Shown: positions 41,616-60,526, counted from the stretch's first letter. The stretch: 64,000 nt of DNA from a candidate division CSSED10-310 bacterium (GCA_016927905.1 JAFGLW010000026.1:43586-107585), one strand, 5' to 3'. The notes: a model not told the origin generated them from the letters alone. Program-made: numbers and translations.

Positions 41616-42376
41616 TGAAACGTAAAAACACGAGATCGATGCGCATTCTTTCCATGACAGCCGGTTTATTCCTGATCTCGCTGGGCATGGCTTATGCCGG
41701 AACATTCGATCTGGAACTGGAAACCGGAAGCGTGTGGTTCACCCGCAACGATATCCGGATACCGGGTGACATCGGCACCCAATTCGACATGATGGACCTG
41801 ACGGGTTCGAGTCCGGACGGGTACCTGCGGCTGCATGCCGTTTATGGGTTCAATGAATATCATGCCCTGCGGATCACACTCGCTCCGTTGAAAGTCGAGG
41901 GTACCGGTACGCTCGATCAGGATGTATTTTTTCAAGATTCCAGGTTTGAGAAGAACCGGTCGACCACCGGAACATTTCAATTCAACACCTACCGTTTGAC
42001 CTACCGCTGGATGTTCCACCTCGGGGTGAAATGGAATTGGGGGATCGGCGGTGCGCTTTTGGTTCGTGATGCCGAAGTCGCCTTGAGACAGGGAATGAAC
42101 CGGGCATCGAACGACGATCTGGGTCTGGTTCCGCTGCTGCACCTGTATGGTTTATATCGTTTCGGGGAATGGATTTCGGTTGTTCTGGATGCGGAAGGCG
42201 CCGGTTCATCGCAGGGCAGGGCCATCGATGCCGCCGTCAGGTTTGAACACGCATGGCCCTCCGGATGGCGTATCTTTGCCGGTTACCGCGTCCTGGAGGG
42301 CGGTGCCGACAATGACAGTGTATACACTTTCGCCTGGCTGCACCATGCGGTTGCGGGTGCAGGATATCGGTTCTGA
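41615..42376 (+). CDS. putative outer-membrane beta-barrel protein
   Basis: Signal peptide (MRILSMTAGLFLISLGMAYA), alternating amphipathic strands, C-terminal ..GAGYRF (aromatic terminal residue). Confidence 0.55.
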   Translation: MKRKNTRSMRILSMTAGLFLISLGMAYAGTFDLELETGSVWFTRNDIRIPGDIGTQFDMMDLTGSSPDGYLRLHAVYGFNEYHALRITLAPLKVEGTGTLDQDVFFQDSRFEKNRSTTGTFQFNTYRLTYRWMFHLGVKWNWGIGGALLVRDAEVALRQGMNRASNDDLGLVPLLHLYGLYRFGEWISVVLDAEGAGSSQGRAIDAAVRFEHAWPSGWRIFAGYRVLEGGADNDSVYTFAWLHHAVAGAGYRF

Positions 42377-42384
42377 ACTGTTTT

Positions 42385-43632
42385 TCAGGGTCGCCCCGCG
42401 ACCCGGTTCCGTCCCGCACGTTTCGCCTGATACAGCGCTTTGTCTGCCGCCCTGATCGCCTGGTCCGGCAACGGGCGGGTCGGTGAACTTGCGGCAAATC
42501 CGACACTGACCGTCACCTTGATCCCCCCGGTTTTTCTCGCCGTTCTTTTCGCTTTTCCGGTTTTATTCCGGGGTCGTCGCCGGCCTCGCAGATAAAAAGG
42601 TTGGGTTGCGATGGCTTGTCTCAGGTTCTCCAGGTGGGTTCTGATGGATTTTGCATCCAGTCCCGGGAAAATGACGGCAAATTCCTCCCCCCCGAACCGG
42701 AACACCCTTCCGCCGCCTCCGACCGAATCCAACCGGGATGAAATCATACGCAGGATCTGATCGCCGGTATCATGGCCGTAGCGGTCGTTTATTTTCTTGA
42801 AATGGTCGATATCGATCATGGCAACGGTATATTGGGTGTCCAGTTGTCCCAGATATTGATTGAGGGCCCGGCGTCCCGGAAGGCCGGTCAATTCGTCCCG
42901 GTATGCCATCCGGTACACCGCATCCAGGATGGAGGATATCACGATGAGTCCGGCTGCAGGAAAAAAAACCCGGTCGGATGGATTGGGATTTCGAATGACA
43001 AATGCACCTCCCGTTGCCACCGTTGCGAACAGATAGGCGGTGGTGACGGATTGAGGCTGTTTCCAGACTTTAGCAACGATAACGGCAAGGGCGGCGAACC
43101 AGGCCAGGCCTGCGGGCTGCCCCGGAGGAATATCGAATATCCCGCCGGGAATGATCCGGAAAGTCAGGACTTCGTGTACGGCGCTCGGAAAAAACCGGAA
43201 AACCGCCATCCACAGGAATATTTCTAACCCGATTATTCCGAAACGAAGCACATTTATCAGGGAAAAAAACCGTCTTTCCCTTATCCATACCGCGGTCATC
43301 AAATGTAAAGGAATCAAGACAGCAAGGCATTTCAACGGGTCGCCGTATCCTGTTTGTGCTGCAGGTTGGATTGTGAAAAGACGTATCCAGGTGAAATCGG
43401 CGACTCCGATCAGAATCAGGAAAAGCGACTGCCGGTGCCGCCGGTAGACGAGGCCCAGGCCGATACCCGTCAGATAGACCGCATACAGGTATGGGGACAG
43501 GAAATGACGGGCCAGCTCTGGATTGTGTCTGGCCGTTATTACAACCGGGAGGGTGATGAGAAAAACGATCCCCGACGGCCAGAGGAGATTTCCCGGGATA
43601 TTCCGTGTGCCGGTGGATTTCATGTATTCCAT
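42385..43632 (-). CDS. membrane-bound diguanylate cyclase (GGDEF domain; N-terminal multi-TM sensor region)
   Basis: ..IDIDHFKKINDRYGHDTGDQIL..RFGGEEFAV (GGEEF active site). 6-7 N-terminal TM helices. Start set at the internal ATG to avoid overlap with the upstream gene. Confidence 0.85.
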   Translation of the reverse strand: MEYMKSTGTRNIPGNLLWPSGIVFLITLPVVITARHNPELARHFLSPYLYAVYLTGIGLGLVYRRHRQSLFLILIGVADFTWIRLFTIQPAAQTGYGDPLKCLAVLIPLHLMTAVWIRERRFFSLINVLRFGIIGLEIFLWMAVFRFFPSAVHEVLTFRIIPGGIFDIPPGQPAGLAWFAALAVIVAKVWKQPQSVTTAYLFATVATGGAFVIRNPNPSDRVFFPAAGLIVISSILDAVYRMAYRDELTGLPGRRALNQYLGQLDTQYTVAMIDIDHFKKINDRYGHDTGDQILRMISSRLDSVGGGGRVFRFGGEEFAVIFPGLDAKSIRTHLENLRQAIATQPFYLRGRRRPRNKTGKAKRTARKTGGIKVTVSVGFAASSPTRPLPDQAIRAADKALYQAKRAGRNRVAGRP

Positions 43633-43660
43633 GTTCGGTGCGGGAATCTGCCGGTGGAGG

Positions 43661-46414
43661 TCATCGTGCGGGCAGCTTCGACAAGAGGATCTCCGGAGTA
43701 ACCGGTATTCGGTTGAATTGGATTCCCGCAGCATCGGTGACGGCATTCAGTATGGCCGGTGCGGCAGCCAGGGTGGCCGGTTCACCCAGACCCTTTGCTC
43801 CCATCGGGCCCAATGGATCCGGAGTTTCGACGAAAACGACATCGATATCGGGAACATCGCCGAATCGCATGAGCTGATATGTGTTGAAATCCAGAGTCTG
43901 CGGGATCCCTTCCTTTACTCTGTATTCTTCAGACAGCACCAATCCGGCGGCCATGACCGCGCCGCCGGTGACCTGACTTTTCGCCAGTTCCGGATGAATG
44001 ATGCGTCCGGAATCGTGTGCACAGGTCATCCGGATCACCCGAATCTTGCCATTTTTCAAATTCACGGAGACTTCCGAGCATGCAGCGGCAAACGCATAGG
44101 TCCGATAGACATCGCCCTGGCCTGTGGACGGGTCCAGCGGCTCTGTAGGATTAAAATATCTCGCTTTTTGAACCAGGTTCAAATTTCTTCTGAATGCTTC
44201 GCTGATCAGATCGTTCCAGGAGATTTCGCCATGTCCCCGGCTTTTCCATTTACCGGAGTGGATTTCGATGGTTTGGGGATCGGCTTTCAGCAGATCGGCG
44301 GCAACCGGCAGGAGGATTTGTTTTAATCTGGTGCAGGCTTTCAATACCGCGTTACCGGTCACGAAGGTTTGCCGGGATGCAACGGTGGAGCCGCTGTCGG
44401 GAGTTCGCTTTGTATCACCGGTTTCAAGGTATGCGCTGGAGCGCGGAGTGCCCAGCGTTTCCAGGGCGATCTGCAGGAGCACCGTTGAGGATCCCTGCCC
44501 GTAATCGACGGCGCCGGTAGCCAGGTGGGCATTTCCGTCCGGGTCGATCCGGATTTCGGCCTGACCCTTATCGGGGATTCCGTTTCCGTACCCGATTCCG
44601 TAAAATGCGCCGGCGATACCATACCCGATTGAAATATTACCCTTAACCTGTCTTCCCCGGGCGGGCCCGGGCCATCTGAACCGCCGCGCGGCGGCGTGCA
44701 GGACGGGCGGCAGGGCATCCGTACCCGTCAGTTCCTGTCCCGTTGCCGTTTGGCTGTGATTGACCAGGGCATTTTTGATCCTGAATTCCAGCGGATCCAT
44801 TTTCAACATACCGGCGATGTGGTTCATGTGGTATTCTGCAGCGAGCAGGGACTGGGTTGCGCCGAACCCCCGCATCGCTCCTGAAAAAGCGGAATTTGTA
44901 TAGACGGACTGACCCGCCAGCCGGACGGACGGAATATCATACGGCCCGGTTGAGTGAACGAGGGATTTTCTCAGGATATTGGGTGCCCATGATGCGTAAG
45001 CACCGGTATCGGCTTTCAGATCGATTTCCAGACTCCGCACCCGTCCGGTGGAATCGACCGCTGACCGGTGGATGATTCGAACGGGATGCCGTTTGGTTGT
45101 GCTGCGGAAAGATTCTTCGCGATTGAGAACAACCTTTGCGGGCCGCCGGGTAATCCAGCAGGCCAAGGCGGCCAGAGGCTGGGCGATCATATCTTCGCGT
45201 TTGCCGAATGCCCCGCCGGTGTGCGCCTGGATGACCCGGATCCGATGACTCTGCCTGGGTGGAATTCCCAGGATCCGCATCAATTCCAGGCGGTCGAAAA
45301 AAACATTCTGGGACGGACCGATGACGGTCAGAACGCCGTCCGAGTCGATATGGGCAACAGCCGCTTCCGTTTCCAGAAGAGCGTGCTCGATGAATCCTGT
45401 TTCAAACCGGTCTTCTACGATGGCAGTCTGGTTTTCTGCATCCGGTTTCCCCTCTTTTTTTACGACCATTGCGGATGCGGTATTCCCGGTTTCCCAGATA
45501 GGGGACGCACCGGGTTCCAATGCATCTTCCATGCTGTAGATACCGGGCACGGGAACAGTTTTCACGATCACTTTGCCCGCAGCCGCCCGGGCGGTTTCGG
45601 GAGATTGGGCGATCACCAGTGCGACGCAATCGCCCCAGAACCGGATGGCATGTTCAGCCAGAACCGGCCGGTCCGCCTTCCACCGGCCGACGGCGTTCAA
45701 ACCCGGGATGTCTTTCCAGGTCAGAACCCGAATCACACCGGGTATCGCCAGTGCATCATTCGGTTCAATGTTAACAATCCTGCCGCTCGGGACCGGTGTC
45801 CACACCGGTGCGGCATGAACCATATCCGGGAAATTGTAATCCGCCGAGAAGAGGGCGCGCCCCGTCACCTTTTCGATCCCGTCGATGCGCCAGGGGGATT
45901 GCCCGACTCCCCAGCCGGTATCCCGGGGAGCGGTTTGATTTCTCAACGATTCCGCCGCCGCGAGAACGGCATTCTCAATGGGAAGATATCCGGTACACCG
46001 GCACAGATTTCCTTTCAACGCACGCCTGACGTCCGTTCTGTCCGGCCGGGCATTCCGAAGCAGTAATGCGTACGCCGACATCAGCATTCCCGGAGTGCAG
46101 TATCCGCACTGCACGGCGCCGGAGCTTAAAAACGCCGCCTGGAGAGGGTGCAGGGTGTCAATTTCGGCCAGGCCTTCGACCGTGATGATTTCGCATCCAT
46201 CCGCTTTGAAGGCCGGGTACCGGCAGGATCGCACCGCGCTTCCGTTGACGACGATCGTGCAGGCTCCGCAGGAACCGCTGCTGCATCCACGTTTTGCGCC
46301 GGTCAGCTCGAGACGGTTTCTCAGAACATCCAGAAGCATTTCCCGGGACGTAACCGGTAAAGAACAGTGCCGGCTGTTCACGGAAAACGAGATGATCCTG
46401 CTTCCGGTTACCAT
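43661..46414 (-). CDS. xanthine-oxidase-family molybdoenzyme, MOP-type aldehyde oxidoreductase (N-terminal 2x[2Fe-2S] domains fused to Moco-binding domains, no FAD domain)
   Basis: GCSSGSCGACTIVVNGSAVRSC and ..QCGYCTPGMLMS..NLCRCTGY [2Fe-2S] motifs, then aldehyde-oxidase a/b hammerhead and Moco domains. 917 aa, like Desulfovibrio MOP (907 aa). Confidence 0.85.
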   Translation of the reverse strand: MVTGSRIISFSVNSRHCSLPVTSREMLLDVLRNRLELTGAKRGCSSGSCGACTIVVNGSAVRSCRYPAFKADGCEIITVEGLAEIDTLHPLQAAFLSSGAVQCGYCTPGMLMSAYALLLRNARPDRTDVRRALKGNLCRCTGYLPIENAVLAAAESLRNQTAPRDTGWGVGQSPWRIDGIEKVTGRALFSADYNFPDMVHAAPVWTPVPSGRIVNIEPNDALAIPGVIRVLTWKDIPGLNAVGRWKADRPVLAEHAIRFWGDCVALVIAQSPETARAAAGKVIVKTVPVPGIYSMEDALEPGASPIWETGNTASAMVVKKEGKPDAENQTAIVEDRFETGFIEHALLETEAAVAHIDSDGVLTVIGPSQNVFFDRLELMRILGIPPRQSHRIRVIQAHTGGAFGKREDMIAQPLAALACWITRRPAKVVLNREESFRSTTKRHPVRIIHRSAVDSTGRVRSLEIDLKADTGAYASWAPNILRKSLVHSTGPYDIPSVRLAGQSVYTNSAFSGAMRGFGATQSLLAAEYHMNHIAGMLKMDPLEFRIKNALVNHSQTATGQELTGTDALPPVLHAAARRFRWPGPARGRQVKGNISIGYGIAGAFYGIGYGNGIPDKGQAEIRIDPDGNAHLATGAVDYGQGSSTVLLQIALETLGTPRSSAYLETGDTKRTPDSGSTVASRQTFVTGNAVLKACTRLKQILLPVAADLLKADPQTIEIHSGKWKSRGHGEISWNDLISEAFRRNLNLVQKARYFNPTEPLDPSTGQGDVYRTYAFAAACSEVSVNLKNGKIRVIRMTCAHDSGRIIHPELAKSQVTGGAVMAAGLVLSEEYRVKEGIPQTLDFNTYQLMRFGDVPDIDVVFVETPDPLGPMGAKGLGEPATLAAAPAILNAVTDAAGIQFNRIPVTPEILLSKLPAR

Positions 46415-46659
46415 ATCGATTTTGAGGCCGGTCGGACCATTTCGGTGAGCGTTTCCGGGAACAGACCCCAGAAAATGGTAGGAATGAGTGTCGGCAAAAC
46501 AACGAACCAGACAGCCGGATCCCAGGCGACAGCAGCCGTCACCGCGTTGTTTGTCCGGTTGAAAGGGTGGCGGAACCGGTTGGCGAGAAAAAACAAAAGA
46601 GCGAAACCTGCCAGGATAAATTCAGGTCCCAGAGCGTTCAGTAAGGGAGCCTGAAACAT
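46408..46659 (-). CDS. small 2-TM membrane protein (83 aa), coupled between the NuoM-like gene and the MOP gene
   Basis: TGATG overlap with the upstream gene and a 7-nt overlap with the downstream gene. Two hydrophobic helices. Confidence 0.5.
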   Translation of the reverse strand: MFQAPLLNALGPEFILAGFALLFFLANRFRHPFNRTNNAVTAAVAWDPAVWFVVLPTLIPTIFWGLFPETLTEMVRPASKSIW

Positions 46660-48272
46660 CAGTCATCCTGCAGCATATCCGGGTTTGTCGGCAACCTGAA
46701 CGAACTCTTTTTCTGTTTCGTCGAATCCATCTTGTTCCGGCTGGTGTAGTCTCTGAGCATGTGATGCGACTTGATGATATTGACCACCCGCCCGGCGGGC
46801 GGATGGATATCTCGAACGATGAACTGAGGATACAACCCGAACCAGCCGATCAGAAATGCGGTCAGCAGAAAGACGGTTTTACCTCCGGGATGGTCCCGGA
46901 CCGCCGAACGCGCCACGATGTCGGATGTCGGACCGGTGAAGATCCGCTGATACATCCATGACATGTACGCGGTGCCGATGATCAATCCGGTCAGCGCTAC
47001 CGCTGCCCAGACCGGTTGAGCCGCCACTGTGCCGCTGAAAATCATAAACAGACCGGGGAATCCACTGAGACCCGGCAAACCCAGGTATGCAAATCCGGCC
47101 AGGAGGAAAAATGCACCCAATCCCGGAAACATCCGGTTCAGCCCTCCGAAATCCTGGATCAGCGAGGTTCCGTAAGTTCTGGATATCCAGCCGATCACAA
47201 GAATAAGCAGCGTATAGGCAAATCCGTGGGCGATGGAGTGGAACAGGCCTCCCAGGATCCCGTTGTTGTTCAGAACAAAGAGTCCCAGGGTGACAAATCC
47301 CATATGGGATATACAGGAGAAAGCCACCAGTTTTTTCATATCGGCCTGGACAAGGGCCAGAAGCGCGCCATAGACGATACTGATCAATGCAAGATAAACG
47401 GCTGTCTGGGATCCGGTAATGACGGCATCCGGGCACAGCGGAATGGAAAACCTGATAAATCCGTACAGACCCATTTTCAGACTGACTGCACCGATAAACA
47501 CCGCAATCGGAATGGATGTCTGATTGATGGTTTGGGAAAGCCAGCTGTGAAAGGGGAAAAGACCCAGCCGGGATGCAAACCCGATCCACAGCAACCAGAA
47601 AATCCATTTCTGGGTGCCGACCGGCAGGTTGAAATTCTGAAAGGCGATCAGACTGAACGAGGGATATCCGGTCATTCTTGAAGCGGTCACGTACAAAAGC
47701 ACAAACGCCAGAATCAACGCCAGCATCCCGGCGAATTGAGACATCAGGAATCGGAGACCGGCGGCACCGACACGTCTTTCATCTTTCTGTGGCAACAGGT
47801 AGAACAGGATTCCAATGGACAATCCCCAGAATACGATGAACAAAAAGATATCCGTAGCTACAAGAAGACCGGAAGTGGCGGAAGTAAGCAGCAGGAAACC
47901 GGCATAGAATGATTTATCCTGAGCCATCGATTCGTGACCCGAAACAGCCAGGCAGATCAGGGATATACTCAGCGTCAATTCAAGAAACCAGTAGCTGATT
48001 CCGTCCAGACCCAGCTGATAATGAACTCCCAGCGTGGCGATCCACGGTATCTTTTCCGTAAACTGATATCCATTGAGCGTAGGTGATTCGATGAAAGGAA
48101 AGACAAGTGATATCAACAGGGTCAGGCCCAGGATCAGTACACTGAAGATGCCGACGGTCCGCGGAGTCGATCTTCTGAAAAAAACGATGAGGAAAGCACC
48201 CGCTGCCGGCAAACCCAGAATCAATGAAAGAAACGGAAACTGACTTCCTGTATCCACGCGATCAACCCGCAC
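46659..48272 (-). CDS. proton-conducting membrane transporter family protein (NuoM/NuoN/MrpD-like antiporter module), divergent
   Basis: ~14 TM. ..FHSWLSQTINQTSIPIAVFIGAVSLKMGLYGFIRF.. aligns to the H-x-W-L-P-D..P-x-S-A-L-I-H-A-A-T..Y-G region of complex I antiporter-like subunits, but with the conserved His/Thr replaced. Confidence 0.7.
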   Translation of the reverse strand: MRVDRVDTGSQFPFLSLILGLPAAGAFLIVFFRRSTPRTVGIFSVLILGLTLLISLVFPFIESPTLNGYQFTEKIPWIATLGVHYQLGLDGISYWFLELTLSISLICLAVSGHESMAQDKSFYAGFLLLTSATSGLLVATDIFLFIVFWGLSIGILFYLLPQKDERRVGAAGLRFLMSQFAGMLALILAFVLLYVTASRMTGYPSFSLIAFQNFNLPVGTQKWIFWLLWIGFASRLGLFPFHSWLSQTINQTSIPIAVFIGAVSLKMGLYGFIRFSIPLCPDAVITGSQTAVYLALISIVYGALLALVQADMKKLVAFSCISHMGFVTLGLFVLNNNGILGGLFHSIAHGFAYTLLILVIGWISRTYGTSLIQDFGGLNRMFPGLGAFFLLAGFAYLGLPGLSGFPGLFMIFSGTVAAQPVWAAVALTGLIIGTAYMSWMYQRIFTGPTSDIVARSAVRDHPGGKTVFLLTAFLIGWFGLYPQFIVRDIHPPAGRVVNIIKSHHMLRDYTSRNKMDSTKQKKSSFRLPTNPDMLQDD

Positions 48273-50322
48273 CTTTCAGAAATGCCATATATAACAGAAC
48301 CAGAAGCATAATGGCAAAACCAGTCACGACCGCCAGGGCGGTGAACCATTTGGAACCGGAATGGATTCCGCGAAGGAGCTTGTTGCATATTGCGGCGAGC
48401 GCTGTCGGGCCATGTACCAAAATACTATCAAAAAACCACCGGTCAAATGCAACAGTGAACTCACTCCATTTCCTGCCTGCCGTTGAAATCCATACGAAAA
48501 GAAACTGGACGATCCAATCGTCGAATATCCAGAGGTATTCGCCGATTTTTTTTACGGGAAGCACGAAAATCCATGACATCAGCCGGTCGATCCACAAATA
48601 CTTTAATGCGGCATATTCCGGAACGGATTCCCTGATCGTCCGATCGGATTGTCGCTTTTTCAGAAGATTTCCGGATTTCAAACCCGCGGCGAATGCCAGG
48701 GCGATACCCAGCGCGGGAATAAACGCTGTTTTCCAGCCGGTTCCGGTTTTCAGGAGAGCGGATACCGGTGCGCCCGGGAATGCAGGAATCAGCATGTCGG
48801 ATCCCCTGATGAGCATGGAACAGAACACGGCGGATCCGGTGATGCTGAGTATGGCAAAAACCAAAGCCCATCCGGATGAGGATGCTGCGCCGCCTGCGGG
48901 GCGATGGCTGAACAGCCTGGTTGTCACCCTGCCGAAGCAAAAGACCAGCATCAGGCCCAATATCGCTGTGAGCCATATATGAATCGGGTCGGCCGGGTAT
49001 TCATGCAGGAACACAAGCCCGGCCGGAAAACCTCCGAACGGCGGCATCCAAAACAGCGTCAGGCAGCCGACCGTCCAGGATAGATCCCGGATGTGGAGAT
49101 GTGCCCGATGACGGGTGGATTCGATTCGACCGGAAGATCCGGATTGCGGGCCTGAATCCCTGAAACCGGGGGAACGTTCCCCGGCTTCAGAAGTCAGCCA
49201 GACAGCCGTCAATGCTGTTACAGCGATAAACAATACCAGCGCTTCTTCCGCCGGTTTCCCCAAACTGAAAAACAGAGTCAGCATTCCGCAGACGAGAACC
49301 GGAAGCTGTTGTAAAATCGATTTCAGATCGGGCAGCCGTGACATCAGAAAGAGTGCCAGTGCCATGGTCAACAATCCGGAAATACGCAGGAGGGTTCCAC
49401 CGAAATGTACAGCGGAAATGAGGTCTGCGTTCCGGATATAAATCAGCAAATACACGGGTATCAGGGCGCAGAAAGTCATTACCCTCAACGGATACGGGCA
49501 GTCCGAAAGATGCCGGGTCCATCCCGCGAACACCAGCCCCGCCGTTTTGATGGTCACTGCGGCCCAGAGACAAAGTATCACGGCAGTTAATTGGGCGGGG
49601 ACTGTTCCGTGGGTAAAAGCGGCGGTGAAGGAATGAAGTTGGTAGTTGTTGATGAAACCGTAATTCGTCTGGAGAAACAGGACCGCGGCCAGCAACAGGA
49701 CATCGGCGATCAGCAGCGCCGGCAACGGCAGGCTTCTGAATCCGGCGTTTGATTCACCCGTCACATTGAACTCCGAAATCAGAAAAACGGCAACCGATAT
49801 GCCCACCGATCCAAACAATCCGGTCCAGAGTGATCCGCTCAAAATGAACAATGCCGTCATGCCGAACGCAAAATGAATCAGGCTGTAAATCTTCCATTTC
49901 TGTTGATCCGGCATCGGAACGCGGGGAACGAACGAGTGGGCCGCAAGGGCGGTCAGAGCGGCCAGAAATACCATCACAAGCGATATTCTGTCCAGATGGA
50001 AAATGACATTGCACTGGAGCCAGGGATTCTGGATCCATGTCCAGATATGGGAGATGACGAATCGGCCGGAACCACCCTTGGATGCCATCTCGAAAATGGC
50101 ACCCAGGGAAATCAGGCAGGTGGTTGAAATTACCGCTGCAGACAGTTGCCTGATGCGTTTAATGGCTGCCGGCTGCCTGAAAATCAGATTAATCAGAGCC
50201 GTCGCCAAAGGCAGGAGCGGAATCAGCCAGATGAACTGCGATGTTTTCAACGGCAATCTTCCCTGGTTTTCGAAATGTCTCCATCCGGGACGATACCGGA
50301 ACGTGATCCGAATGGCATGCAT
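48262..50322 (-). CDS. NuoL/MrpA-like polytopic membrane protein, highly divergent
   Basis: N-terminus ..FIWLIPLLPLATALINLIF.. resembles the NuoL/MrpA N-terminus. ~18-20 TM; 686 aa. Confidence 0.55.
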   Translation of the reverse strand: MHAIRITFRYRPGWRHFENQGRLPLKTSQFIWLIPLLPLATALINLIFRQPAAIKRIRQLSAAVISTTCLISLGAIFEMASKGGSGRFVISHIWTWIQNPWLQCNVIFHLDRISLVMVFLAALTALAAHSFVPRVPMPDQQKWKIYSLIHFAFGMTALFILSGSLWTGLFGSVGISVAVFLISEFNVTGESNAGFRSLPLPALLIADVLLLAAVLFLQTNYGFINNYQLHSFTAAFTHGTVPAQLTAVILCLWAAVTIKTAGLVFAGWTRHLSDCPYPLRVMTFCALIPVYLLIYIRNADLISAVHFGGTLLRISGLLTMALALFLMSRLPDLKSILQQLPVLVCGMLTLFFSLGKPAEEALVLFIAVTALTAVWLTSEAGERSPGFRDSGPQSGSSGRIESTRHRAHLHIRDLSWTVGCLTLFWMPPFGGFPAGLVFLHEYPADPIHIWLTAILGLMLVFCFGRVTTRLFSHRPAGGAASSSGWALVFAILSITGSAVFCSMLIRGSDMLIPAFPGAPVSALLKTGTGWKTAFIPALGIALAFAAGLKSGNLLKKRQSDRTIRESVPEYAALKYLWIDRLMSWIFVLPVKKIGEYLWIFDDWIVQFLFVWISTAGRKWSEFTVAFDRWFFDSILVHGPTALAAICNKLLRGIHSGSKWFTALAVVTGFAIMLLVLLYMAFLKGAG

Positions 50323-50517
50323 GTCGACTTACGATGGATCATCAGGCCGGCGCAACCGAGCATTAACAGCAGTATACTCAGGGCAAAAACCGAATGCTGG
50401 GTAATCATGATTCTTGATCCGACGGTCCGGCAAACGGGCGGTTGCCGGATCGCGGGTTGATTGAAATCAATTCCGAAACAATCATGATCACTTCAAACAG
50501 ATAATAGATTAAAGGTT

Positions 50518-52347
50518 TCATTCCGAAATGTCGATTCCGTGCAATCGGGCTGAACCGCATGATTCGGGCGAAGCCAGGATCGGGAAGATATCTTCAGGTT
50601 CCCGGTACCGGAGGATGGCGCAACCCTCCGGTGCGGTTTCCGTGATATGGCACAATCCGAACAGGGTTCCCCCGGATGTTTCGATCCGGATTCGGCCGGC
50701 GTCCGCCAGGCCGAAATGTTCTGCACGGGAAGGATGAATATGGACAACCGTTGTGATTGTTTTGTTGAGAAGTCTCGATATTTCCGGTGGAATGACGGCA
50801 AGACCGGGCTCAATTTTCTTGAAATAAAGCGGAATCTCATCCCGGGCCACATCCGCCCTTGAGTTGTTCTCCCGGATTTGAAACCGGATCCCGGGCAAAT
50901 CGCCGATGCTGAAATCGTCGGGGATCAGAATGGATGGCAATTCCGTATCCGCCAGAACCGGCTGGGATTCGCCCGAAAGCACCGATCGCGGGCTGACATT
51001 CAGGAAACCGGGGACGCAATCGACCATGTCTTTCAGTATGTTTTCGAATGAAAGGGGTTCTTCAGCGGTTTTGAGATCGCAGAGCCAGTGAGCGGGGAGT
51101 TCCCAATCCGAATAATATCCATCGGAAACATCATGGAGTTTTATTTTACGGAGATTGGCATCGGAATTTATCACGGTTCCGCCGGCCGAACCGGCAGGTG
51201 CCAGCGGCCACCAATATCGGCTTCCGGGTTCAAAAACCTGTCCGGCTCCAGCGAGCAGTTTCAGCCTTGATAACCGGCCCGATGACAACACACTGGGTGG
51301 AAACAGCTTGCTGGGCGGTTTCCCCAGCCATATCAAAGCTTTCAATTCCCCCGATTCCAGTTTTTCCGGGAGATCCGACAGGGACAGGCCGGGTTTTTCG
51401 GGAATCGGTGATTTCCAGCATTCGGAAAACCATGTTTTGCCTGCACTGCTGGAAATCGGCACGTATCCGGGCAGGTGATCCGGGGAGATGCCCGTCAGGC
51501 TGATCCCCAGCGGGTTCAACGTATCAAATATCCAGAAGATACCGTTTCCCGGTGAACCGAGATGCCCCGTGGCCATGATCAGATTCAGAATATCAGATAC
51601 AATCGCGTTCCGGTAATAATCCGGGGTGTCGTCGTTTCTGATGATGGTGACGATATGCTGGTATCGGGAGAACAAAAGAGCTGTCTGGTTGATTCTTTCG
51701 GCGGGGATTGCCCATCGTTCCGCAACCGATTCCGGTGTATATTCCCTGCACTGTTTCAGCAATCTCTGGAATCCTTCGTTATCACGCCAGATGATCTGGC
51801 GGTCCGTTCCGCCGTGAAGGTGGATCGTTCGAAGAATGGCTCGGAGCAGATCGCTTTCGGCCTGGAGTGAGGTGTTGAAATGTACGTCGGCAAGATCCGA
51901 CAGGCGGCTGGTTTCGGGATCCCAGAGAATGATTTTCTGATCGGTATGATCTTTGTTCTGGATGAGTATATCTAAAATATCCGGCCGGCTGTGTTCCAGG
52001 GTTGTGTGGAATATGCAGACAACATCCGCCTTTCGAATCCAGTCGATGCGCACGGACTGGGGAAGCATTCCGATGGTGTTGAATGTTGCGTGACTTGCAT
52101 TCCAGGAGATTTCCGGGCCGGAAGTGCCGATCAGGTTGTTTGTTCCCAGGATTAACCGGAAGAATTTCTGGAACAGGTAGGCTGCTTCATTGCTGATATC
52201 GGAGGATACAATACCTGCGATTGCATCTGGACCATCCGTATTGCGTATATCCAGCAGATCCCGGTAGAAGTAACGAAAGGATCCGGACAATTCCCCGCCC
52301 GGTTCCGTTCTTTCCAATTCCGCAATACACTCGGCCATCATCAACAA
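50518..52347 (-). CDS. molybdopterin (Mo-bisPGD) oxidoreductase-like protein lacking the N-terminal Fe-S Cys motif (possible cofactor-less NuoG-C-terminal-like pseudo-enzyme)
   Basis: ..SDISNEAAYLFQKFFRLILGTNNL.. matches the Mo-oxidoreductase NE[DE]xY..QK..R..GTNN block. The C-terminal region resembles the molydop_binding beta-barrel. No CxxC clusters anywhere. Confidence 0.6.
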   Translation of the reverse strand: MLMMAECIAELERTEPGGELSGSFRYFYRDLLDIRNTDGPDAIAGIVSSDISNEAAYLFQKFFRLILGTNNLIGTSGPEISWNASHATFNTIGMLPQSVRIDWIRKADVVCIFHTTLEHSRPDILDILIQNKDHTDQKIILWDPETSRLSDLADVHFNTSLQAESDLLRAILRTIHLHGGTDRQIIWRDNEGFQRLLKQCREYTPESVAERWAIPAERINQTALLFSRYQHIVTIIRNDDTPDYYRNAIVSDILNLIMATGHLGSPGNGIFWIFDTLNPLGISLTGISPDHLPGYVPISSSAGKTWFSECWKSPIPEKPGLSLSDLPEKLESGELKALIWLGKPPSKLFPPSVLSSGRLSRLKLLAGAGQVFEPGSRYWWPLAPAGSAGGTVINSDANLRKIKLHDVSDGYYSDWELPAHWLCDLKTAEEPLSFENILKDMVDCVPGFLNVSPRSVLSGESQPVLADTELPSILIPDDFSIGDLPGIRFQIRENNSRADVARDEIPLYFKKIEPGLAVIPPEISRLLNKTITTVVHIHPSRAEHFGLADAGRIRIETSGGTLFGLCHITETAPEGCAILRYREPEDIFPILASPESCGSARLHGIDISE

Positions 52348-52452
52348 CCCGATCCCGGATCCTCGGACAGAAGCAATATGCGTTACCCGTGAAATCCGCT
52401 TTCAGTTTAATCTCAAATTCATCCAAAGACAATCGGATGCCGGAGAAAAGGC

Positions 52453-53187
52453 CTATGGTTTTTTGCTCCGGGAACGTGTTCTGCCGGGTTGTTTGGATTT
52501 GACCCTTGAGATCTTTTTGGGTTTCGAAGCAAGAGCTGTTTCCAGGTCGCCGATTTTCTGTTCCAATGCTGCCAGACGGTTCTGCATGTCCTTGAATGCC
52601 GCCACGGACACGCGCCGCCGGTGTTTGCGTTTCCGGTCTTCCTGTATTTGATTCCAGTATTTCTGGATATCCTCCAGCAGGTAATTGGTTTTTCGGGCGT
52701 AGATGCGGGGATCCTGGATATGACCCGATCTGACCAGAGCCCGTAATTTGCTGCGGGATACGCCCATTTTTTTCAATTCCTGTACGGAAGCGTATTGGTC
52801 TGATTTGAAAGGCACCCGTTTCGGTCGTTTATTCAGAAAAGCATCGATATCGGATTTGAGAAACAGGTTTTTCCGACCGATGGTCTTAGCCGGTTTGATT
52901 TTGCCTTTTCGAGCCCACAGCCGGACGGTTTGCTCACTGATATTCCCGACCCGGGCGATATCTTCGACGCTGTAGTTAACCGATTTGTCATAGGATGGAC
53001 CGCCGATACGCAGCCGGGCTGCATGCCCGAAAATATATTTGGGAATACCGTTCCAGAAATGGCTGTCTTTCAATACAATTACTTCATTGCATCCGCAGGC
53101 ACACCGGTGCTTGCCGGTTTCCTTCTCATGGAATGTCTTCAGATCGTGATATTTTTTCCTGATCACATTTTTATCCAGCACAATCAA
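52453..53187 (-). CDS. DNA-binding protein with two excisionase/MerR-type HTH_17 domains and a basic coiled-coil C-terminus
   Basis: Two copies of the Y-S-V-E/Q-x-L-x-x-V-S-x-x-x-V-R-x-W pattern. Lys/Arg-rich tail. Adjacent to an AT-rich non-coding region. Confidence 0.55.
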   Translation of the reverse strand: MIVLDKNVIRKKYHDLKTFHEKETGKHRCACGCNEVIVLKDSHFWNGIPKYIFGHAARLRIGGPSYDKSVNYSVEDIARVGNISEQTVRLWARKGKIKPAKTIGRKNLFLKSDIDAFLNKRPKRVPFKSDQYASVQELKKMGVSRSKLRALVRSGHIQDPRIYARKTNYLLEDIQKYWNQIQEDRKRKHRRRVSVAAFKDMQNRLAALEQKIGDLETALASKPKKISRVKSKQPGRTRSRSKKP

Positions 53188-53816
53188 CCCCTCCTTTCCC
53201 GGAATATCTCAGCTTCCCGATTTGAGGTCGAACCCGGGAATCCGTCCATTCCGAATCGCCATATCCAGCTTCCGCTGCATCAGCCTTGATTAATTAACTT
53301 CTTCAACTATTTATTAAATCAAAAAAAAGTTTCTTGTCAAGTTTCAACCATTGGGGAATAATAATAGATTGAAAACCGGTCTGGAAATCCGTTGATTTAT
53401 CTTTTGAATCTTGTGTCGGGAGGGGTGTTGAAATTTTTCCGAAAGAAGCGGGAACAGGAAGAATCGGTATGCATTATTTCCGGATTCGGTACAATCAATA
53501 ACATACTGGCGTGAGGGACACCAAGAAATGAAATAATTGCTACAATGTCTGCAGATTTGTACGCATTTGGAATCAGCCGGTCGATCCGGTGTGCCGCCAA
53601 TCGGTTTTCCGGTTTTCAGATACATTTCGATTGATATAATCCAGGCTGCACTCAATTTGATTGTCATCGGTATTTATTTCTTCATTTCCGCCGTTCTGGT
53701 CCCGGCAGCAGAACCCCGACGCCGACCTTCACTATCGCGACCGATCCCACAGCCATATTGGCCGGGCAGGCATCCCATTCTTGCCCGGGATTCCGGTTTG
53801 ACCGGGTATCCGGCAA

Positions 53817-54263
53817 TCACGCCCCGATAATTTTAACCAGCACCCTTTTGGGTCTCTGCCCGTCGAATTCCCCGTAAAAAATTTGTTCCCACGGTCCGAA
53901 ATCGAGTTTCCCGCCGGTGATGGCGATGACGACTTCCCGGCCCATGACCGTTCTTTTCAAATGCGCATCCCCGTTGTCTTCTCCCGTTCGATTGTGTCGG
54001 TACCGGCTGACCGGTTCATGGGGTGCGAGTTGTTCCAGCCATTGATCAAAATCGTTTAAAAGGCCGGGCTCCGCGTCATTGATGAACACGCTGGATGTAA
54101 TGTGCATGGCATTTACCAGGCACAGTCCCTCCCGGACGGCACTCCGTTTCACCAGGGATTCCACCTGGGGTGTGATGTTGATGAATCCGCGGCGCCGGGG
54201 AACATGAAAGGTCAGGTAATCGGTCAGCGATTTCACCAGTTTACCTCCGGTCCTGAACGGCAA
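53817..54263 (-). CDS. YjbQ/UPF0047 family protein (secondary thiamine-phosphate synthase-like)
   Basis: ..[82 protein letters not shown] matches the family across its whole length. Confidence 0.8.
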
Positions 54264-55203
54264 AATAGTCGGATGATGTCTGATACCGGCATTCCAGGTC
54301 GATCAGTTCGATGATTTTGGACGGCAGATTATCCTCACCGGTATTTGTTTGGGTGAGTTTGGCTATCTGCCATGTGGACCGTTCCAGTCGATGCCCGGTT
54401 TCCGAAAACAGGATTAAACCAGAACCGCTCCATTCCGTTCGCCCGGGTATGGAGCTCAGGTCTGATATGAGGGAAATTGAACAATTCAAGGCAAACGGGG
54501 CGGACGGTTCGGAAGGCTCGTGATCATCCCGGCCGAATGTCATCGTTCCCCGGATGTTACTGAATTGATGTGCAGCGGCAGTGTAGTCCGGGAAAGGTCC
54601 CGATTCCGTGTCGCCCGGTTTCAGATTTCCCCTGGGAAGGGCGAAGAGGATTTGGAGAACCAAAAGGGTGTCGCGTGTGGTTGGATCGGTTGTCTTCAGC
54701 AGCTTTCCGGAAGGTTCCAGGATGAACTCGGCGACGCGGGTCAGCCGACCCATTTCGGGAGTAATCTGCACCGGCTGTCCATATCGGATCAGTTCTATCA
54801 TCTGAAGGTACAGGCTGCCGGCTGCCGACCGGTCGTTCACGGTCTTTAAAATACACTCCCCTCCGAGGGTCTCCCGGTGTTCGGCGCTTCGAAGCCATGT
54901 CTGAGTTTTAAAATCAAAAACTTCTTTTTGGGCGCGAAGTGATTGTTTGACGGCGTATATGAAATCGGTTTCCCGGACGAACCGCCAGTAATCCGGCTGG
55001 AATTGATCCGGTGCCGCGGTCGTTCGGGGAAACGGTGTCGACCGGGGGGGGAGCGGGGTGGAAGAATCATCGGAGAACGTGGCCGGACAGACGAGGCCGC
55101 TCATCACCGATAGCCACAGAAACCATCCCGGAAACGGCCGGTAATAACCCTCAGGCAGTGTTTTTCTCCATAAACTGCACAATTCTCGATAATCCCTCTC
55201 GAA
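54241..55203 (-). CDS. hypothetical secreted protein (start uncertain)
   Basis: The ORF in the track overlaps the aminotransferase stop by 150 nt. An internal ATG at 55203 gives a signal-peptide-like N-terminus (..[19 protein letters not shown]). Confidence 0.4.
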
Positions 55204-56362
55204 TATCATCCGCACTGGAAGCATAGGAGAATCGAATGTGCTGGCCTTCATCCGGCACACGGGGGCCGAAATGGATATCCGCCAGGCAGGCGACACCGGC
55301 CTCATACAGCAGCCGGATCCGGAACGCCTCTGAATCCTTGCATCCTGTCAACCGGCAGGCATCGGTAACATTCGGCCAGACGTAGAAAGCCCCGCCGGGT
55401 TTCCTGCAGGATATGCCCGGAATAGCATTCAATCCGGGGACAATGATGTCCCGGCGTTCCCGGAATATGCGGGCCATTTCCTGAACTTCCGCCTGTGGAC
55501 CGGTCAGTGCAGCGGCGACTGCCACCTGGTTGGGATGGGGGGCGCAGGAGTCGGAGTTGGTGACCAGGCGTGTGATATGGGGAGCCAGCACGGTGTTTGC
55601 CATGTATCCGATCCGCCATCCGGTCATGGCGTAAGTCTTGGATGCGCAATCCACAACCACGGTCCGGTCCTTCATTCCAGGTACGGAAGCTATGGAAGCG
55701 AATGGGGCATCGAAAACGAGATTGCTGTAAACTTCATCGGCGTACACCCAGATGTCGTTTTTGATGCATATATCCGCAATCTCCTCCAGTTCCGCCTTGC
55801 TCAGCACGCCGCCGGTGGGATTGTGTGGTGAATTGAGAATCAGCAGTTTGGTTCGGGGTGTGATTTTTTCGCGGAGTTCCCCGATATTGAAGTTGAAATT
55901 CTTGTCTTCCCGGAGGTACAGCGGCACCGGAACCGCACCCATTCCCTTGATCATGGATTCGTAAATGGGAAACCCGGGATTGGGAAAAATGACTTCATGG
56001 CCCTTACCGGGATCGGTAACGGCAAATATCGTGTACCATATGAACGGTTTGCCGCCGCAAGCGATCACGATATCGTCAGCCGTGTAATCCAATCCCCGGG
56101 TGGATGTGAAATACTGGGCTGCAGCTTTTCGCAGAGCGGGAATTCCGGATGAGGGTGTGTAGCCGTGCAGTCCGTTGTCGATCGCTTCCTTGGCGGCATC
56201 ACAGATATGTTTCGGGGTTTTGAAATCAGGCTGGCCGATACAGAAATTCATGATCTTTTTGCCCTGGGCGATCAGGTCGTTGACTTCCTTCAGTACAACA
56301 AATGCATTCTCGGTTCCCAAACCACCCATGCGTTCTGAGACAGTGCCTTTCGCTAAAGTCAT
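55151..56362 (-). CDS. pyridoxal-phosphate-dependent aminotransferase, class I/II (AspC-like)
   Basis: ..NSPHNPTGGVLSK.. ..SKTYAMTGWRIGY (PLP-Lys block). 403 aa. Confidence 0.9.
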   Translation of the reverse strand: MTLAKGTVSERMGGLGTENAFVVLKEVNDLIAQGKKIMNFCIGQPDFKTPKHICDAAKEAIDNGLHGYTPSSGIPALRKAAAQYFTSTRGLDYTADDIVIACGGKPFIWYTIFAVTDPGKGHEVIFPNPGFPIYESMIKGMGAVPVPLYLREDKNFNFNIGELREKITPRTKLLILNSPHNPTGGVLSKAELEEIADICIKNDIWVYADEVYSNLVFDAPFASIASVPGMKDRTVVVDCASKTYAMTGWRIGYMANTVLAPHITRLVTNSDSCAPHPNQVAVAAALTGPQAEVQEMARIFRERRDIIVPGLNAIPGISCRKPGGAFYVWPNVTDACRLTGCKDSEAFRIRLLYEAGVACLADIHFGPRVPDEGQHIRFSYASSADDIREGLSRIVQFMEKNTA

Positions 56363-56455
56363 AACAATATCCTCCTTGAAAAATATGATGCTTTAACCTT
56401 GTATCACATCGGCGGTTGCCGGGCAAGACCGCCCCGAATCCAGGCATGACCGGGT

Positions 56456-57418
56456 TCAAACCCGGGCCTGGATGAAAATCAGCTTCGGTTTGAGGGCCGG
56501 ATAGCGCCGGGTATTCAGGATGGTGAACCCGTGTTTTCGAAGCCGGGTGATCAAATCCTCCGCTCCATGATGAAGCTCGAGATGGTTTCGAAGCATGTGC
56601 AGGATGAGTTGACCGACGGATTCCCCCGCATGCAGGTCGGTTCCGGCAACCGGTTCGATCAGCCACAGGGATGCGCCGGGTTTCAGAACGGCTGCGAGCT
56701 GTTGAATGACCCGGTCGATTCCCTCGATGTGCGCCAGTCCGTTGATGGAGATTACCGCATCGAAATGAGCGGGAGGAAAGGGCATTTGCCGGGCGTCGGC
56801 ACCAACGGGCAGTACCCGCTGAAGTATGCCGGCCCGCCGGCACCGGCCTTCAAGGATCTTGATTTTTTCCAGATCGATATCCAGACAGGCGGTCAGGGTT
56901 CCCCGGGGACGCCATTGGGCCAGCCGCACCAGGTGTCTTCCGGTTCCGGAACCGATGTCCAGGATCCTGCGGGGAGCGTGTTCCACTGCATGAGCGAGCA
57001 GTTTGTCGACGTTTTCCGTCCTGTCATCCAAGTCGGTTTCGGAAGGCGCGATGAAGCGGTGAAAGTAATAATCAGATCCACAGAACACGGCCCGCTTGAA
57101 CCGGAATTCAGAGCGTCCGGATGTGATGGTTTCCAAAGGCATCGACAGGATTTTCTCTACGAGCGGTTCCCATCCGCCGGTCTGTCCCAGTTCCGCCCAT
57201 CGTTCACCGAAAATCCGCTGAAACGGAGGGTTCCAGACCGGGTCGAAACCCGCTGGTACCAGAACGGGAATACGGGCTTTGACCGAGCCGCGGTACCCGC
57301 ATGACCGGCAGATGAAATCACCGGAGGATATAACGCCATTGCGGGTTCGGCCGTGAATCAGTTTCAGTGCGCCCGAACAGTTCGGACAGCGGAGATGAAT
57401 CAAATGATCCCGGATCAT
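56456..57418 (-). CDS. class I SAM-dependent methyltransferase with N-terminal Trm112-like zinc-ribbon
   Basis: CPNCSGAL..CRSCGY zinc ribbon. ILDIGSGTGRHL motif I. Confidence 0.8.
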   Translation of the reverse strand: MIRDHLIHLRCPNCSGALKLIHGRTRNGVISSGDFICRSCGYRGSVKARIPVLVPAGFDPVWNPPFQRIFGERWAELGQTGGWEPLVEKILSMPLETITSGRSEFRFKRAVFCGSDYYFHRFIAPSETDLDDRTENVDKLLAHAVEHAPRRILDIGSGTGRHLVRLAQWRPRGTLTACLDIDLEKIKILEGRCRRAGILQRVLPVGADARQMPFPPAHFDAVISINGLAHIEGIDRVIQQLAAVLKPGASLWLIEPVAGTDLHAGESVGQLILHMLRNHLELHHGAEDLITRLRKHGFTILNTRRYPALKPKLIFIQARV

Positions 57419-57461
57419 GAACCAAGGATATCAGGGAGACCGGAAGAAAAGAATATGAAAA

Positions 57462-58832
57462 ATGACCGGCAACGATTACTATATGGATTGTGGAGGGAAT
57501 CAAACAATTGTGAATCGATCCGGTACCGGCAGGGATGATCTACTGCTCGAAATCCGCCGAAACGGAGTGGCGGGTGCCGGGGGAGGGGGTTTCCCGACTC
57601 ATGTCAAACTAAACTGCCGGGTGGACACGGTGATTGCGAACGGCGCGGAATGTGAACCGCTTCTCTGGAAAGATAAAACTTTGATGGCCCAGCATCCGGA
57701 CATCATTATCCGGGGATTGATGATCGCAATGGAAATCACAGGATCCGGTACCGGCATAATCGGGCTCAAGAAAAAGGCGACTCAGGCGGTGGATGCCCTG
57801 TCCGGTCATATCCAAAAGCCCATCCGGCTGCACCTTCTGGATGACACCTATCCGTCGGGGGATGAATTTGTCCTGACTTATGAAACGACAGGCCGGGTAC
57901 CGCCTCCCGGAGGTCTTCCGCTTGATGTCGGCGTGGTCATGCTCAACGTGGAAACTCTTTTCTGGATTGGATCGTCCCGTCCGGTCACTCACAAATGGGT
58001 CACAGTCGCCGGTGCGGTACCGGCTCCCAAGACCCTGGTCGTTCCGATCGGTTATCCCGTCCGGGCCGCACTGGCGGCGTGCGGATGGGAACCGGATCAG
58101 GGAACGAGAGTACTTGAAGGCGGTGTCATGATGGGGCGTCTGCTGCCCGATCTGGACGGTCCGATAACAAAAATTACGAACGGGCTGATCGTATTGCCTC
58201 GGGATCATCATTTGATACAACGGTACGAAAGACCCCGGCGTACGGTCAGCAGAATCGCCCGGTCCGCCTGCGATCAGTGCAATTTCTGCACGCAGCTATG
58301 CCCCCGATATCTTCTGGGACATCCGGTGGAACCGCATCTGGCCATGCGGCACATCGCCATGGCACCGGAGAACTCCCTGCCACCAACGGGGAGCCTGTAT
58401 TGCTGCGGCTGTATGCTGTGCTCGTTATGGTCCTGTCCGGAAGATCTCGATCCCGGTGCGATCACATTCGATTATCGGCGGATTCTCAGCGAAAACAAAA
58501 CCAGTACCCGTCTCAAGGCCCGGGAACCGCATCTGCTGTACCGGTACCGGCGACCCACTCTTTCCGGATTGAAACGTCGGCTGGGGTTGGCCTGTTATGC
58601 GGATGCGGCGTTTCCTGTGGAACATTTGACGCATGAAACCGTGAGTATCCCCCTGAAGCAGCATGCAGGAATACCGGCAGAACCGGTTGTCAGTCCGGGC
58701 GACCGGGTTAAGATGGGGGCCATCATCGGAGATATCCCCGATGGCGGCATGGGTGCGTCCGTCCATGCGTCCATTGACGGAGTGGTTCAGGCGGTTTCCA
58801 GTCGGATAACAATTCAAGGAGATAACCGGTGA
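57462..58832 (+). CDS. pduS: PduS-like RnfC-family flavin/Fe-S oxidoreductase (cob(II)alamin reductase-type), BMC-associated
   Basis: GAGGGGFPTHVKL (RnfC/NuoF-type SLBB/FMN region) and two 4Fe-4S motifs (CDQCNFCTQLCP; CCGCMLCSLWSCP). 456 aa versus 451 aa for Salmonella PduS. Immediately followed by a pduT homolog. Confidence 0.75.
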   Translation: MTGNDYYMDCGGNQTIVNRSGTGRDDLLLEIRRNGVAGAGGGGFPTHVKLNCRVDTVIANGAECEPLLWKDKTLMAQHPDIIIRGLMIAMEITGSGTGIIGLKKKATQAVDALSGHIQKPIRLHLLDDTYPSGDEFVLTYETTGRVPPPGGLPLDVGVVMLNVETLFWIGSSRPVTHKWVTVAGAVPAPKTLVVPIGYPVRAALAACGWEPDQGTRVLEGGVMMGRLLPDLDGPITKITNGLIVLPRDHHLIQRYERPRRTVSRIARSACDQCNFCTQLCPRYLLGHPVEPHLAMRHIAMAPENSLPPTGSLYCCGCMLCSLWSCPEDLDPGAITFDYRRILSENKTSTRLKAREPHLLYRYRRPTLSGLKRRLGLACYADAAFPVEHLTHETVSIPLKQHAGIPAEPVVSPGDRVKMGAIIGDIPDGGMGASVHASIDGVVQAVSSRITIQGDNR

Positions 58833-59383: not shown

Positions 59384-59389
59384 TCCGGA

Positions 59390-60391: not shown

Positions 60392-60526
60392 TCATTCCTC
60401 CTTCACCTGCGCCGGAAGCATTTGCACTGCCGGGTGTTTCTCCGGTATAAATTTACCATACGCTTTTTCAAAGCGAAAAGCGTTTGAAAATGATCGGGAG
60501 CCGGTTCCGGTCCGCCGGACTGGAAT

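Follow-up and report, generated by a model that had tools for sequence, protein, structure and literature searches.

What antiporter-like membrane proteins do in an operon that encodes no redox core of complex I is the question raised by a gene cluster of the candidate phylum CSSED10-310. The cluster lies on the minus strand of a 64,000-nt stretch (GCA_016927905.1 JAFGLW010000026.1:43586-107585, here called the window) of a metagenome-assembled genome (MAG) from Zodletone Spring, a sulfidic spring. An earlier note on this DNA had described five head-to-tail genes, encoding a molybdopterin-oxidoreductase-like (Mo-like) protein, a NuoL/MrpA-like and a NuoM/MrpD-like membrane protein, an 83-residue protein with two transmembrane (TM) segments and a 917-residue aldehyde oxidoreductase (AOR), and had proposed that they couple aldehyde oxidation or acid reduction to ion translocation. 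Our analysis establishes a different picture, that of a clade-specific, selected operon which combines degenerate complex I membrane subunits with a dead FdhF-like protein and an intact molybdenum hydroxylase. CSSED10-310 organisms are described as having an anaerobic, fermentative or sulfite-reducing lifestyle (PMC8248873).

All five open reading frames (ORFs) are present as described (Table 1), and an independent Logan assembly (run SRR13394437) is 100% identical across the 9,527 nt from the helix-turn-helix (HTH) gene that begins the cluster to the AOR gene. Because of this identity, the structure of the locus is not an artefact of MAG assembly. Misassembly was also ruled out as the source of the deletions in genes J, K and N that are reported below, since the Logan contig is identical, the three remnants are in frame and their junctions are kept.

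As an alignment search with the L-like protein returned no family members, the census of the family relied on the Mo-like protein, whose relatives are ~500-636 residues long. The cluster was found in seven lineages (the window, L001, L002/L003, L004/L007, L005, L006/L057 and L056), two of which are assigned to CSSED10-310. Most other loci from the pattern search in genomes and metagenomes (L008-L135) carry an ordinary NuoG or FdsA in canonical operons and served only as controls. In its full form the operon reads HTH–Mo-like–J–K–L–M–N–AOR, mostly with overlapping stops and starts, and encodes J-like proteins of 161-172, K-like of 82-102 (weak PF00420 matches), L-like of 633-673, M-like of 528-531, N-like of 456-475 (PF00361) and AORs of 909-915 residues. 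This longer operon was seen in L001, L002/L003, L005 and L006/L057, and the L004/L007 contig stops within K. Beside the window, L056 represents a second reduced form, consisting only of HTH, Mo-like, a 485-residue L, M and AOR.

The five-gene order is not peculiar to one contig, as the core of HTH, Mo-like, L, M and AOR is present in all five lineages whose contigs extend far enough. The HTH gene lies directly upstream of the Mo-like gene in 7/7 lineages, at 45-76% identity, and the AOR closes the cluster in 5/5 informative lineages, both reduced forms included. The window M-like protein is 61% identical to that of L001, which has J, K and N, and 37% identical to that of L056, which lacks them, so the losses in the window and in L056 occurred independently. 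By sequence comparison, then, HTH, Mo-like, L, M and AOR make up the invariant core, and J, K and N are dispensable genes that were lost twice. A literature search found no description of this arrangement, in agreement with the earlier note, which had considered the pairing new.

What is left of J, K and N in the window explains two features that had been read differently. Stops and starts had been described as overlapping throughout. They do so from L to AOR, but the Mo-like and L genes are separated by a 195-nt 'gap', which holds a 53-codon NuoK-like remnant and a 26-codon ORF. The N-terminal ~27 residues of the K remnant align with the K-like proteins of L001 and L002 and with TM1 of Escherichia coli NuoK; the remnant has one TM-like segment, and its TGA stop overlaps the TTG start of the L-like gene at position 50250 (TTGA). 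This TTG (662 residues) is a more likely start for L than the annotated one at 50322 (686 residues). The 26-codon ORF occupies the site of the 161-172-residue J-like gene of the relatives and overlaps the next start as ATGA; without significant sequence similarity, we only tentatively regard it as a NuoJ-like remnant. The 83-residue ORF does contain two TM-like segments, as had been noted, but it is not a dedicated subunit. Its residues 1-28 are 64% identical to the N-terminus of the L001 N-like protein and its C-terminal ~30 residues 48% identical to residues 427-455 of the L002 N-like protein, and relatives carry PF00361 proteins of 456-475 residues at this place. We conclude that it is, as judged from these alignments, a NuoN-like gene from which about 375 codons were deleted in frame.

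All three remnants are in frame and the ATGA, TTGA and TGATG junctions are kept, which leaves the chain of coupling down to L, M and AOR intact. Selection therefore seems to have acted on the continuity of translational coupling rather than on the peptides as such. The locus shows how an operon of many subunits was reduced step by step while its reading-frame coupling was kept. A promoter and terminator scan of positions 42000-54500 gave counts at shuffle expectation and was uninformative.

Between L005 and L006, the ratios of nonsynonymous to synonymous substitution rates (dN/dS) are 0.06 for HTH, 0.10 for Mo-like, 0.34 for J, 0.13 for K, 0.27 for L, 0.09 for M, 0.15 for N and 0.18 for AOR. 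All eight genes are under purifying selection and none is a pseudogene in the L005/L006 lineage; the idea that the whole family consists of pseudogenes was rejected on these values. The membrane module of the window could nevertheless be decaying, with selection acting only on the AOR and on the reading-frame continuity needed for its translation. Such a course would fit the deletion of J, the truncation of K and N to 53 and 83 codons, the conservation of junctions rather than protein in the three remnants, and the rates of L and Mo-like, the fastest-evolving genes of the cluster. Against it, the Mo-like (609 residues), L (662-686 residues) and M (537 residues) ORFs are intact, and Tajima relative-rate tests of the window versus L001 with four outgroups showed no consistent acceleration of Mo-like, L or M. 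Moreover, L056 independently reached the same Mo-like–L–M–AOR set with intact ORFs. From the missing acceleration and the L056 core we argue that the reduced core is still functional, and decay has only a small chance of being the explanation.

The Mo-like protein had been compared with the C-terminal pseudo-domain of NuoG and described as devoid of a Cys cluster. It indeed has no Fe-S domain, but it is nearer to FdhF than to NuoG: the family profile gives 191 bits with E. coli FdhH (FdhF), 170.5 with the FdhF of 7qv7 and 161.9 with 1aa6, FdsA types rank next, and NuoG proteins from real nuo operons reach 77-117 bits, with E. coli NuoG not matched. The window protein itself scores 15-17 bits with the NuoG models TIGR01973 and NF005895. 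An origin from NuoG, suggested by the position before J-K-L-M-N, is not supported by these scores.

Homology to FdhF spans domains II-IV; the match to TIGR01591 (139 bits) begins at profile position 80 and leaves out the N-terminal Fe-S domain. The [4Fe-4S] ligands Cys8/11/15/42, the Mo ligand pair U140-H141 (selenocysteine (Sec)/Cys-His) and R333 are absent or replaced in 7/7 members, and no Cys is invariant in the family. In L002 the Mo-like copy (L002:10001-11500) has only 499 residues and domain IV (Molydop_binding) is entirely gone, so this domain is dispensable too. No TM segments were found in the Mo-like, AOR or HTH proteins. We conclude that the Mo-like protein is a pseudo-enzyme, predicted from its residues to be catalytically dead. 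An AlphaFold2 (AF2) model of it, built from a 4-sequence alignment, had a mean predicted local distance difference test score (pLDDT) of 50 and was not used for fold search.

Of the two large membrane proteins, the M-like one is readily classified. It matches PF00361 at 6e-45 and the NuoM model TIGR01972 with 369 bits, above the cutoff of 264, compared with 104-131 bits for MrpD models, so its description as NuoM/MrpD-like resolves to NuoM. The L-like protein was correctly assigned to the NuoL side but is far more diverged than the name suggests, as it has no Pfam match and reaches only 48.7 bits with TIGR01974 (cutoff 407). An exhaustive HMMER search of 1.84 billion proteins gave 29 weak matches at E ≤ 1e-3, a word-indexed search returned only the protein itself and one canonical NuoL, and an alignment search returned canonical NuoL, HyfF and MrpA. 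The L-like family profile matches canonical NuoL proteins at 5e-31, and these are encoded in complete nuoA-N operons. The protein has about 14 TM segments. Its best-conserved stretch is the NuoL TM15/lateral-helix region, with the C-terminal motif PVKKIG..RKWSEF..FDRWFF. Foldseek comparison of an AF2 model (pLDDT 58, predicted TM-score (pTM) 0.60), whose input alignment contained canonical NuoLs, gave NuoL, ND5 and NdhF as all of its top matches, at TM-scores of about 0.55-0.73. The L-like protein is an extremely diverged derivative of NuoL.

The partners expected of such subunits are missing. Genes for NuoA/B/C/D/H/I were found neither in the 64-kb window (Pfam, tblastn) nor in the 10-kb flanks of six related loci; the window contains no other nuo or mrp genes, no further ones occur in the loci of the relatives, and MrpB/E/F/G have no Pfam or NCBIfam match in either. 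This agrees with the earlier description of the locus as free of NuoB/C/D/H/I and Mrp small subunits. Just past the right edge of the window, a short stretch covered by a 36-kb Logan contig, which for the rest overlaps the window, shows no partners either.

Most residues of the canonical proton path are replaced (residue roles from PMC9271201). In the window M-like protein, E144 is G, K234 is R, K265 is kept and E407 is L. Across the family, E144 is replaced by G or C, K234 by R (L in L056) and E407 by L, I, F or S, with K265 kept. The N-like proteins keep E133 and K217, with K247 replaced by A/L/S and K395 by I/L/R. The L-like family has lost E144, H254, H334, H338, K342, K399 and D400 and keeps D178 and K229 (K or R). 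NuoK Glu36 is lost in the K-like proteins, and the 'YAGA' TM3 segment is absent from the J-like ones. In canonical controls from the other fetched loci, the corresponding patterns are intact in 24/28 NuoM (EKKE), 23/23 NuoN (EKKK) and 32/33 NuoL (EDKHKD). A further ~35 positions with at least 85% conservation in NuoM carry other residues in the M-like proteins, and no new polar cluster was seen. The substitution of LIHAAT by VFIGAVS that had been reported for the M-like protein came from setting a NuoL motif against a NuoM sequence: at this place E. coli NuoM reads DLAGIL, and the Lys of TM8 is conserved. What has truly been lost is the TM5 Glu, the TM7 Lys (to Arg) and the TM12 Glu.

Could the membrane proteins be ordinary subunits of complex I or Mrp, with their partners encoded at another locus, in a split nuo or mrp system? 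The J-K-L-M-N order matches nuo operons and the M-like protein passes the NuoM subfamily model. On the other hand, residues that are invariant in canonical subunits are systematically lost, the L-like protein falls far short of the Pfam and NuoL equivalog models, and partners are absent from the window, from the flanks of the six other loci and from the stretch past the right edge. We regard a split system, which the earlier note had named as its own possible undoing, as very improbable.

An active complex that couples aldehyde oxidation (or acid reduction) to the movement of H+ or Na+, in the manner of DAB or CupA, is also improbable, though less so. Antiporter-like proteins and soluble partners do share one operon, the genes are under purifying selection, and charged residues persist in M (TM8 Lys, TM7 Arg), N (TM5 Glu, TM7 Lys) and L (D178, TM7 Lys/Arg). 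No subunit, however, holds the complete Glu-Lys-Lys-Lys/Glu path found in the controls. The M- and L-like proteins have other residues in place of TM5 Glu, TM7 Lys and TM12 Glu/Lys, the N-like ones in place of TM8 and TM12 Lys, and N, the only subunit to keep the TM5 Glu/TM7 Lys pair, is the one deleted in two lineages. There is no NuoH/B/D-type coupling site, and no Cys is invariant in the L-like or Mo-like families that could take electrons from the AOR. Because of these losses, canonical redox-driven ion translocation by the cluster is unlikely, contrary to what had been proposed from the first inspection of the sequence.

The AOR is the one well-preserved enzyme of the cluster. The Pfam domains (Fer2, Fer2_2, Ald_Xan_dh_C, a/b-hammerhead, MoCoBD_1/2 and no FAD domain) agree with the earlier assignment of two [2Fe-2S] clusters plus molybdenum cofactor (Moco) without FAD. 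The protein aligns end to end with the Desulfovibrio AOR (MOP) 1dgj (395 bits) and keeps the [2Fe-2S] Cys motifs GCxxGxCGAC...C, CGYCTPG and CRCTGY as well as GLGE with the catalytic Glu. Since cofactor and catalytic motifs are retained, it is predicted to be an intact MOP-type molybdenum hydroxylase. Its scores lie below the equivalog cutoffs (550 bits for NF045668, cutoff 1100; 609 for TIGR03311 (Se-XDH), cutoff 830), so that the substrate is not assignable from sequence. It is 51-56% identical to the cluster-ending orthologues of L002, L005, L006 and L056. AOR synonymous divergence (dS) is 0.41 (L005:17318-20047 versus L006:17315-20044), compared with 0.67-1.09 for the operon neighbours, which could reflect high expression with strong codon bias, or else a recent transfer or gene conversion.

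An unlikely but serious alternative is that two functionally unrelated units share one transcript, namely an ordinary soluble Desulfovibrio-type AOR and a pseudo-FdhF/L/M unit with a separate role in the membrane, for instance in assembly, sensing or non-canonical transport. In favour of this, the AOR is without TM segments, can be aligned over its whole length with soluble MOP and evolves at an ordinary rate (51-56% identity), with Mo-like and L much faster. In addition, ten surrounding genes of unrelated function are just as syntenic. This block of about ten genes upstream of the cluster (response regulator/DUF4388, M1 peptidase, tRNA-synt_2, BMC, PduS-like, methyltransferase, aminotransferase, orf354 and YjbQ) keeps its order in L002, L004, L005, L006 and L056, an unusually stable chromosome order at 25-80% protein identity. 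What speaks against two unrelated units is the tight junction between the last membrane gene and the AOR, which overlap in the window and L002 and lie 2 nt apart in L005/L006, the in-frame N remnant that maintains coupling to the AOR, and the closing position of the AOR, reduced forms included. The argument for a functional link draws on this translational coupling and on the AOR as last gene in 5/5 informative lineages, not on synteny.

The reading that we favour, tentatively and with somewhat less than an even chance, is that the cluster encodes a reduced, non-pumping L-M platform derived from complex I, to which the pseudo-FdhF and the AOR are probably attached. On this reading the membrane genes come from the distal end of a nuo operon, and no Q-module or NuoH partner remains. 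The L-M pair, with its NuoL lateral helix, would no longer pump by the complex I mechanism and would persist as a structural platform in the membrane. Translational coupling would yield the cytoplasmic pseudo-FdhF and AOR along with L-M, to which they probably attach. Oxidation of aldehyde (or a related substrate) would thereby be localised to the membrane surface, and electrons would exit through the [2Fe-2S] clusters of the AOR itself to a soluble carrier, e.g., ferredoxin or flavodoxin.

Several points weigh against a non-pumping platform of this kind. The equal synteny of the ten-gene block makes synteny alone weak evidence of functional coupling, and the adjacency of the AOR could reflect inherited chromosome order instead of a functional link. 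Attachment of the AOR or the pseudo-FdhF to the membrane proteins is a deduction from gene order and coupling, and there is no established reason why purifying selection should act on 'dead' pump subunits. The residue calls in the L-like protein, which aligns to NuoL at 16-20% identity, are less certain than the others. Finally, the TM8 Lys and TM7 Arg of M and the D178 and TM7 Lys/Arg of L remain, and non-canonical transport is possible.

A bolder version, which we consider rather doubtful, takes pseudo-FdhF, L and M as a new complex-I-derived membrane complex that would dock the MOP-type hydroxylase, either as an anchor or as a non-canonical transporter. As a transporter it might use the buried charges (M TM7 Arg and TM8 Lys; L Asp178 and TM7 Lys/Arg) to export the carboxylate or proton of aldehyde oxidation. 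If true, this would be the first case in which an antiporter-like module has been recruited to an enzyme of the xanthine oxidase family.

Table 1. Genes, remnants and neighbouring features of the window discussed in the text (positions counted from the first nucleotide of the window)
Feature	Position	Strand	Size or basis
HTH_17/MerR-excisionase-type DNA-binding protein	52453..53187	-	first conserved gene of cluster; Pfam PF12728, 2.8e-16
FdhF-type Mo-bisPGD pseudo-enzyme (predicted), domains II-IV only, soluble	50518..52347	-	609 aa; TIGR01591 139 bits from profile position 80
26-codon ORF, possible NuoJ-like remnant	50405..50485	-	position and ATGA overlap
NuoK-like remnant, 53 codons, TM1 retained	50247..50408	-	alignment to K-like relatives
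Highly diverged NuoL-like membrane protein	48262..50250	-	662 aa; longest ORF to 50322, 686 aa
NuoM-like protein, proton-path residues replaced	46659..48272	-	537 aa; PF00361, TIGR01972
NuoN-like in-frame deletion remnant (TM1 and last TM)	46408..46659	-	83 aa; no family match
MOP-type AOR, 2x[2Fe-2S] and Moco, no FAD domain	43661..46414	-	917 aa; Pfam
Upstream block of about ten genes	53344-63294		order kept in five other loci
354-aa ORF	54241-55305	-	no Pfam or NCBIfam match
PduS/RnfC-like protein, then tandem BMC-domain protein	57462-59383	+	Complex1_51K, SLBB, Fer4_17, RnfC_N in the former
GGDEF protein, longest ORF	42385-43746	-	overlaps AOR 3' end by 86 nt
C25 peptidase, HEAT-repeat protein and two large ORFs, listed jointly	21536-25168, 31551-34874, 147-1268, 15043-17256	+	1210 and 1107 aa; 373 and 737 aa

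Within the upstream block, the flavo-Fe-S protein and the tandem BMC-domain protein that follows it are kept beside the cluster in L002, L004, L005, L006 and L056; the window holds no other microcompartment shell or enzyme genes. The 354-residue ORF, which overlaps the 3' end of the aminotransferase gene as listed, is fast-evolving (24-33% identity) and found at the same position in every lineage. Downstream, the Logan gene call places the start of the GGDEF protein after the AOR stop (415 residues); a GGDEF gene also follows the cluster in L056, and a TPR protein takes its place in L002. Elsewhere in the window are a gingipain-like C25 peptidase, a HEAT-repeat protein and two large ORFs without Pfam match. 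Among the control loci, L020, L021 and L054 (Alphaproteobacteria) have unusual back-to-back nuo operons, with two tandem NuoM-like genes and nuoN directly before a second nuoA-G set.

In complex I, Mrp, membrane-bound hydrogenases and DAB alike, ions are moved by antiporter-like subunits, the universal module for this task. Their selection after loss of the redox partner and the canonical proton path would show other uses of the fold, such as scaffolding or non-canonical transport, and would provide mechanistic studies with a naturally "minimal" L-M pair that includes the lateral helix. Antiporter-like modules would also gain a new class of partner, consisting of a molybdenum hydroxylase and a pseudo-formate dehydrogenase. 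If the association is only transcriptional, the locus is a curiosity of one rare candidate phylum.

Among known systems, the membrane arm of complex I is the closest relative. Homologous J/K/L/M/N subunits occur in the same gene order in the relatives, of which the window keeps L, M and remnants; the L-like protein shares the lateral-helix region and a NuoL-like predicted fold, and the M-like protein passes TIGR01972. Unlike complex I, the cluster has no NuoA/H and no Q- or N-module, most of its proton-path positions (TM5 Glu, TM7 Lys, TM8 His/Lys, TM12 Lys/Glu) have changed, Glu36 of NuoK and the TM3 region of NuoJ are lost, and J, K and N are dispensable. Mrp (CPA3) likewise combines NuoL/MrpA-, NuoM/MrpD-, NuoK/MrpC- and NuoJ-like elements without a redox module, but the cluster lacks MrpB/E/F/G and key charged residues, and its subunits score as Nuo, not as Mrp.

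In formate hydrogenlyase too (FHL-1/FHL-2, FdhF with Hyc/Hyf; PMC9474812), the gene for an FdhF-type protein accompanies those for antiporter-like and NuoK-like subunits related to complex I, and no solved relative scores better with the Mo-like protein than FdhF. The [NiFe]-hydrogenase, the HycB/F ferredoxin and the NuoH-like HycD are absent from the window and related loci, however, the FdhF-like protein lacks the Fe-S cluster, Sec/Cys, His and Arg, and the membrane subunits are of the Nuo type, not the Hyf type.

The CO2-uptake systems DAB (DabA/DabB), MpsAB and CupA-NdhD3/F3 are said to consist of a stand-alone antiporter-like protein and a soluble partner without redox core, the same design logic as here. 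They differ in that no cluster protein matches the DabA (PF10070), CupA/ChpX or carbonic-anhydrase-like families, and in that the cluster has two antiporter-like proteins plus a pseudo-enzyme and has lost the conserved channel residues. Cofactor-less subunits related to enzymes with Mo-bis(pyranopterin guanine dinucleotide) (Mo-bisPGD) serve as structural parts in the NuoG C-terminal domain, QrcB and ActB. The Mo-like protein resembles them as a molybdopterin-oxidoreductase fold without catalytic residues that is presumably structural in a membrane complex, but it is nearer to active FdhF than to NuoG, has no Fe-S domain and has antiporter-like instead of NrfD-type partners. The AOR, finally, matches the Desulfovibrio gigas/desulfuricans enzymes (MOP; 1vlb, 1dgj) over its full length as a single chain with two [2Fe-2S] clusters and Moco and no FAD, and it differs from them in scoring below the equivalog cutoffs and in being the last gene of a membrane-protein operon.

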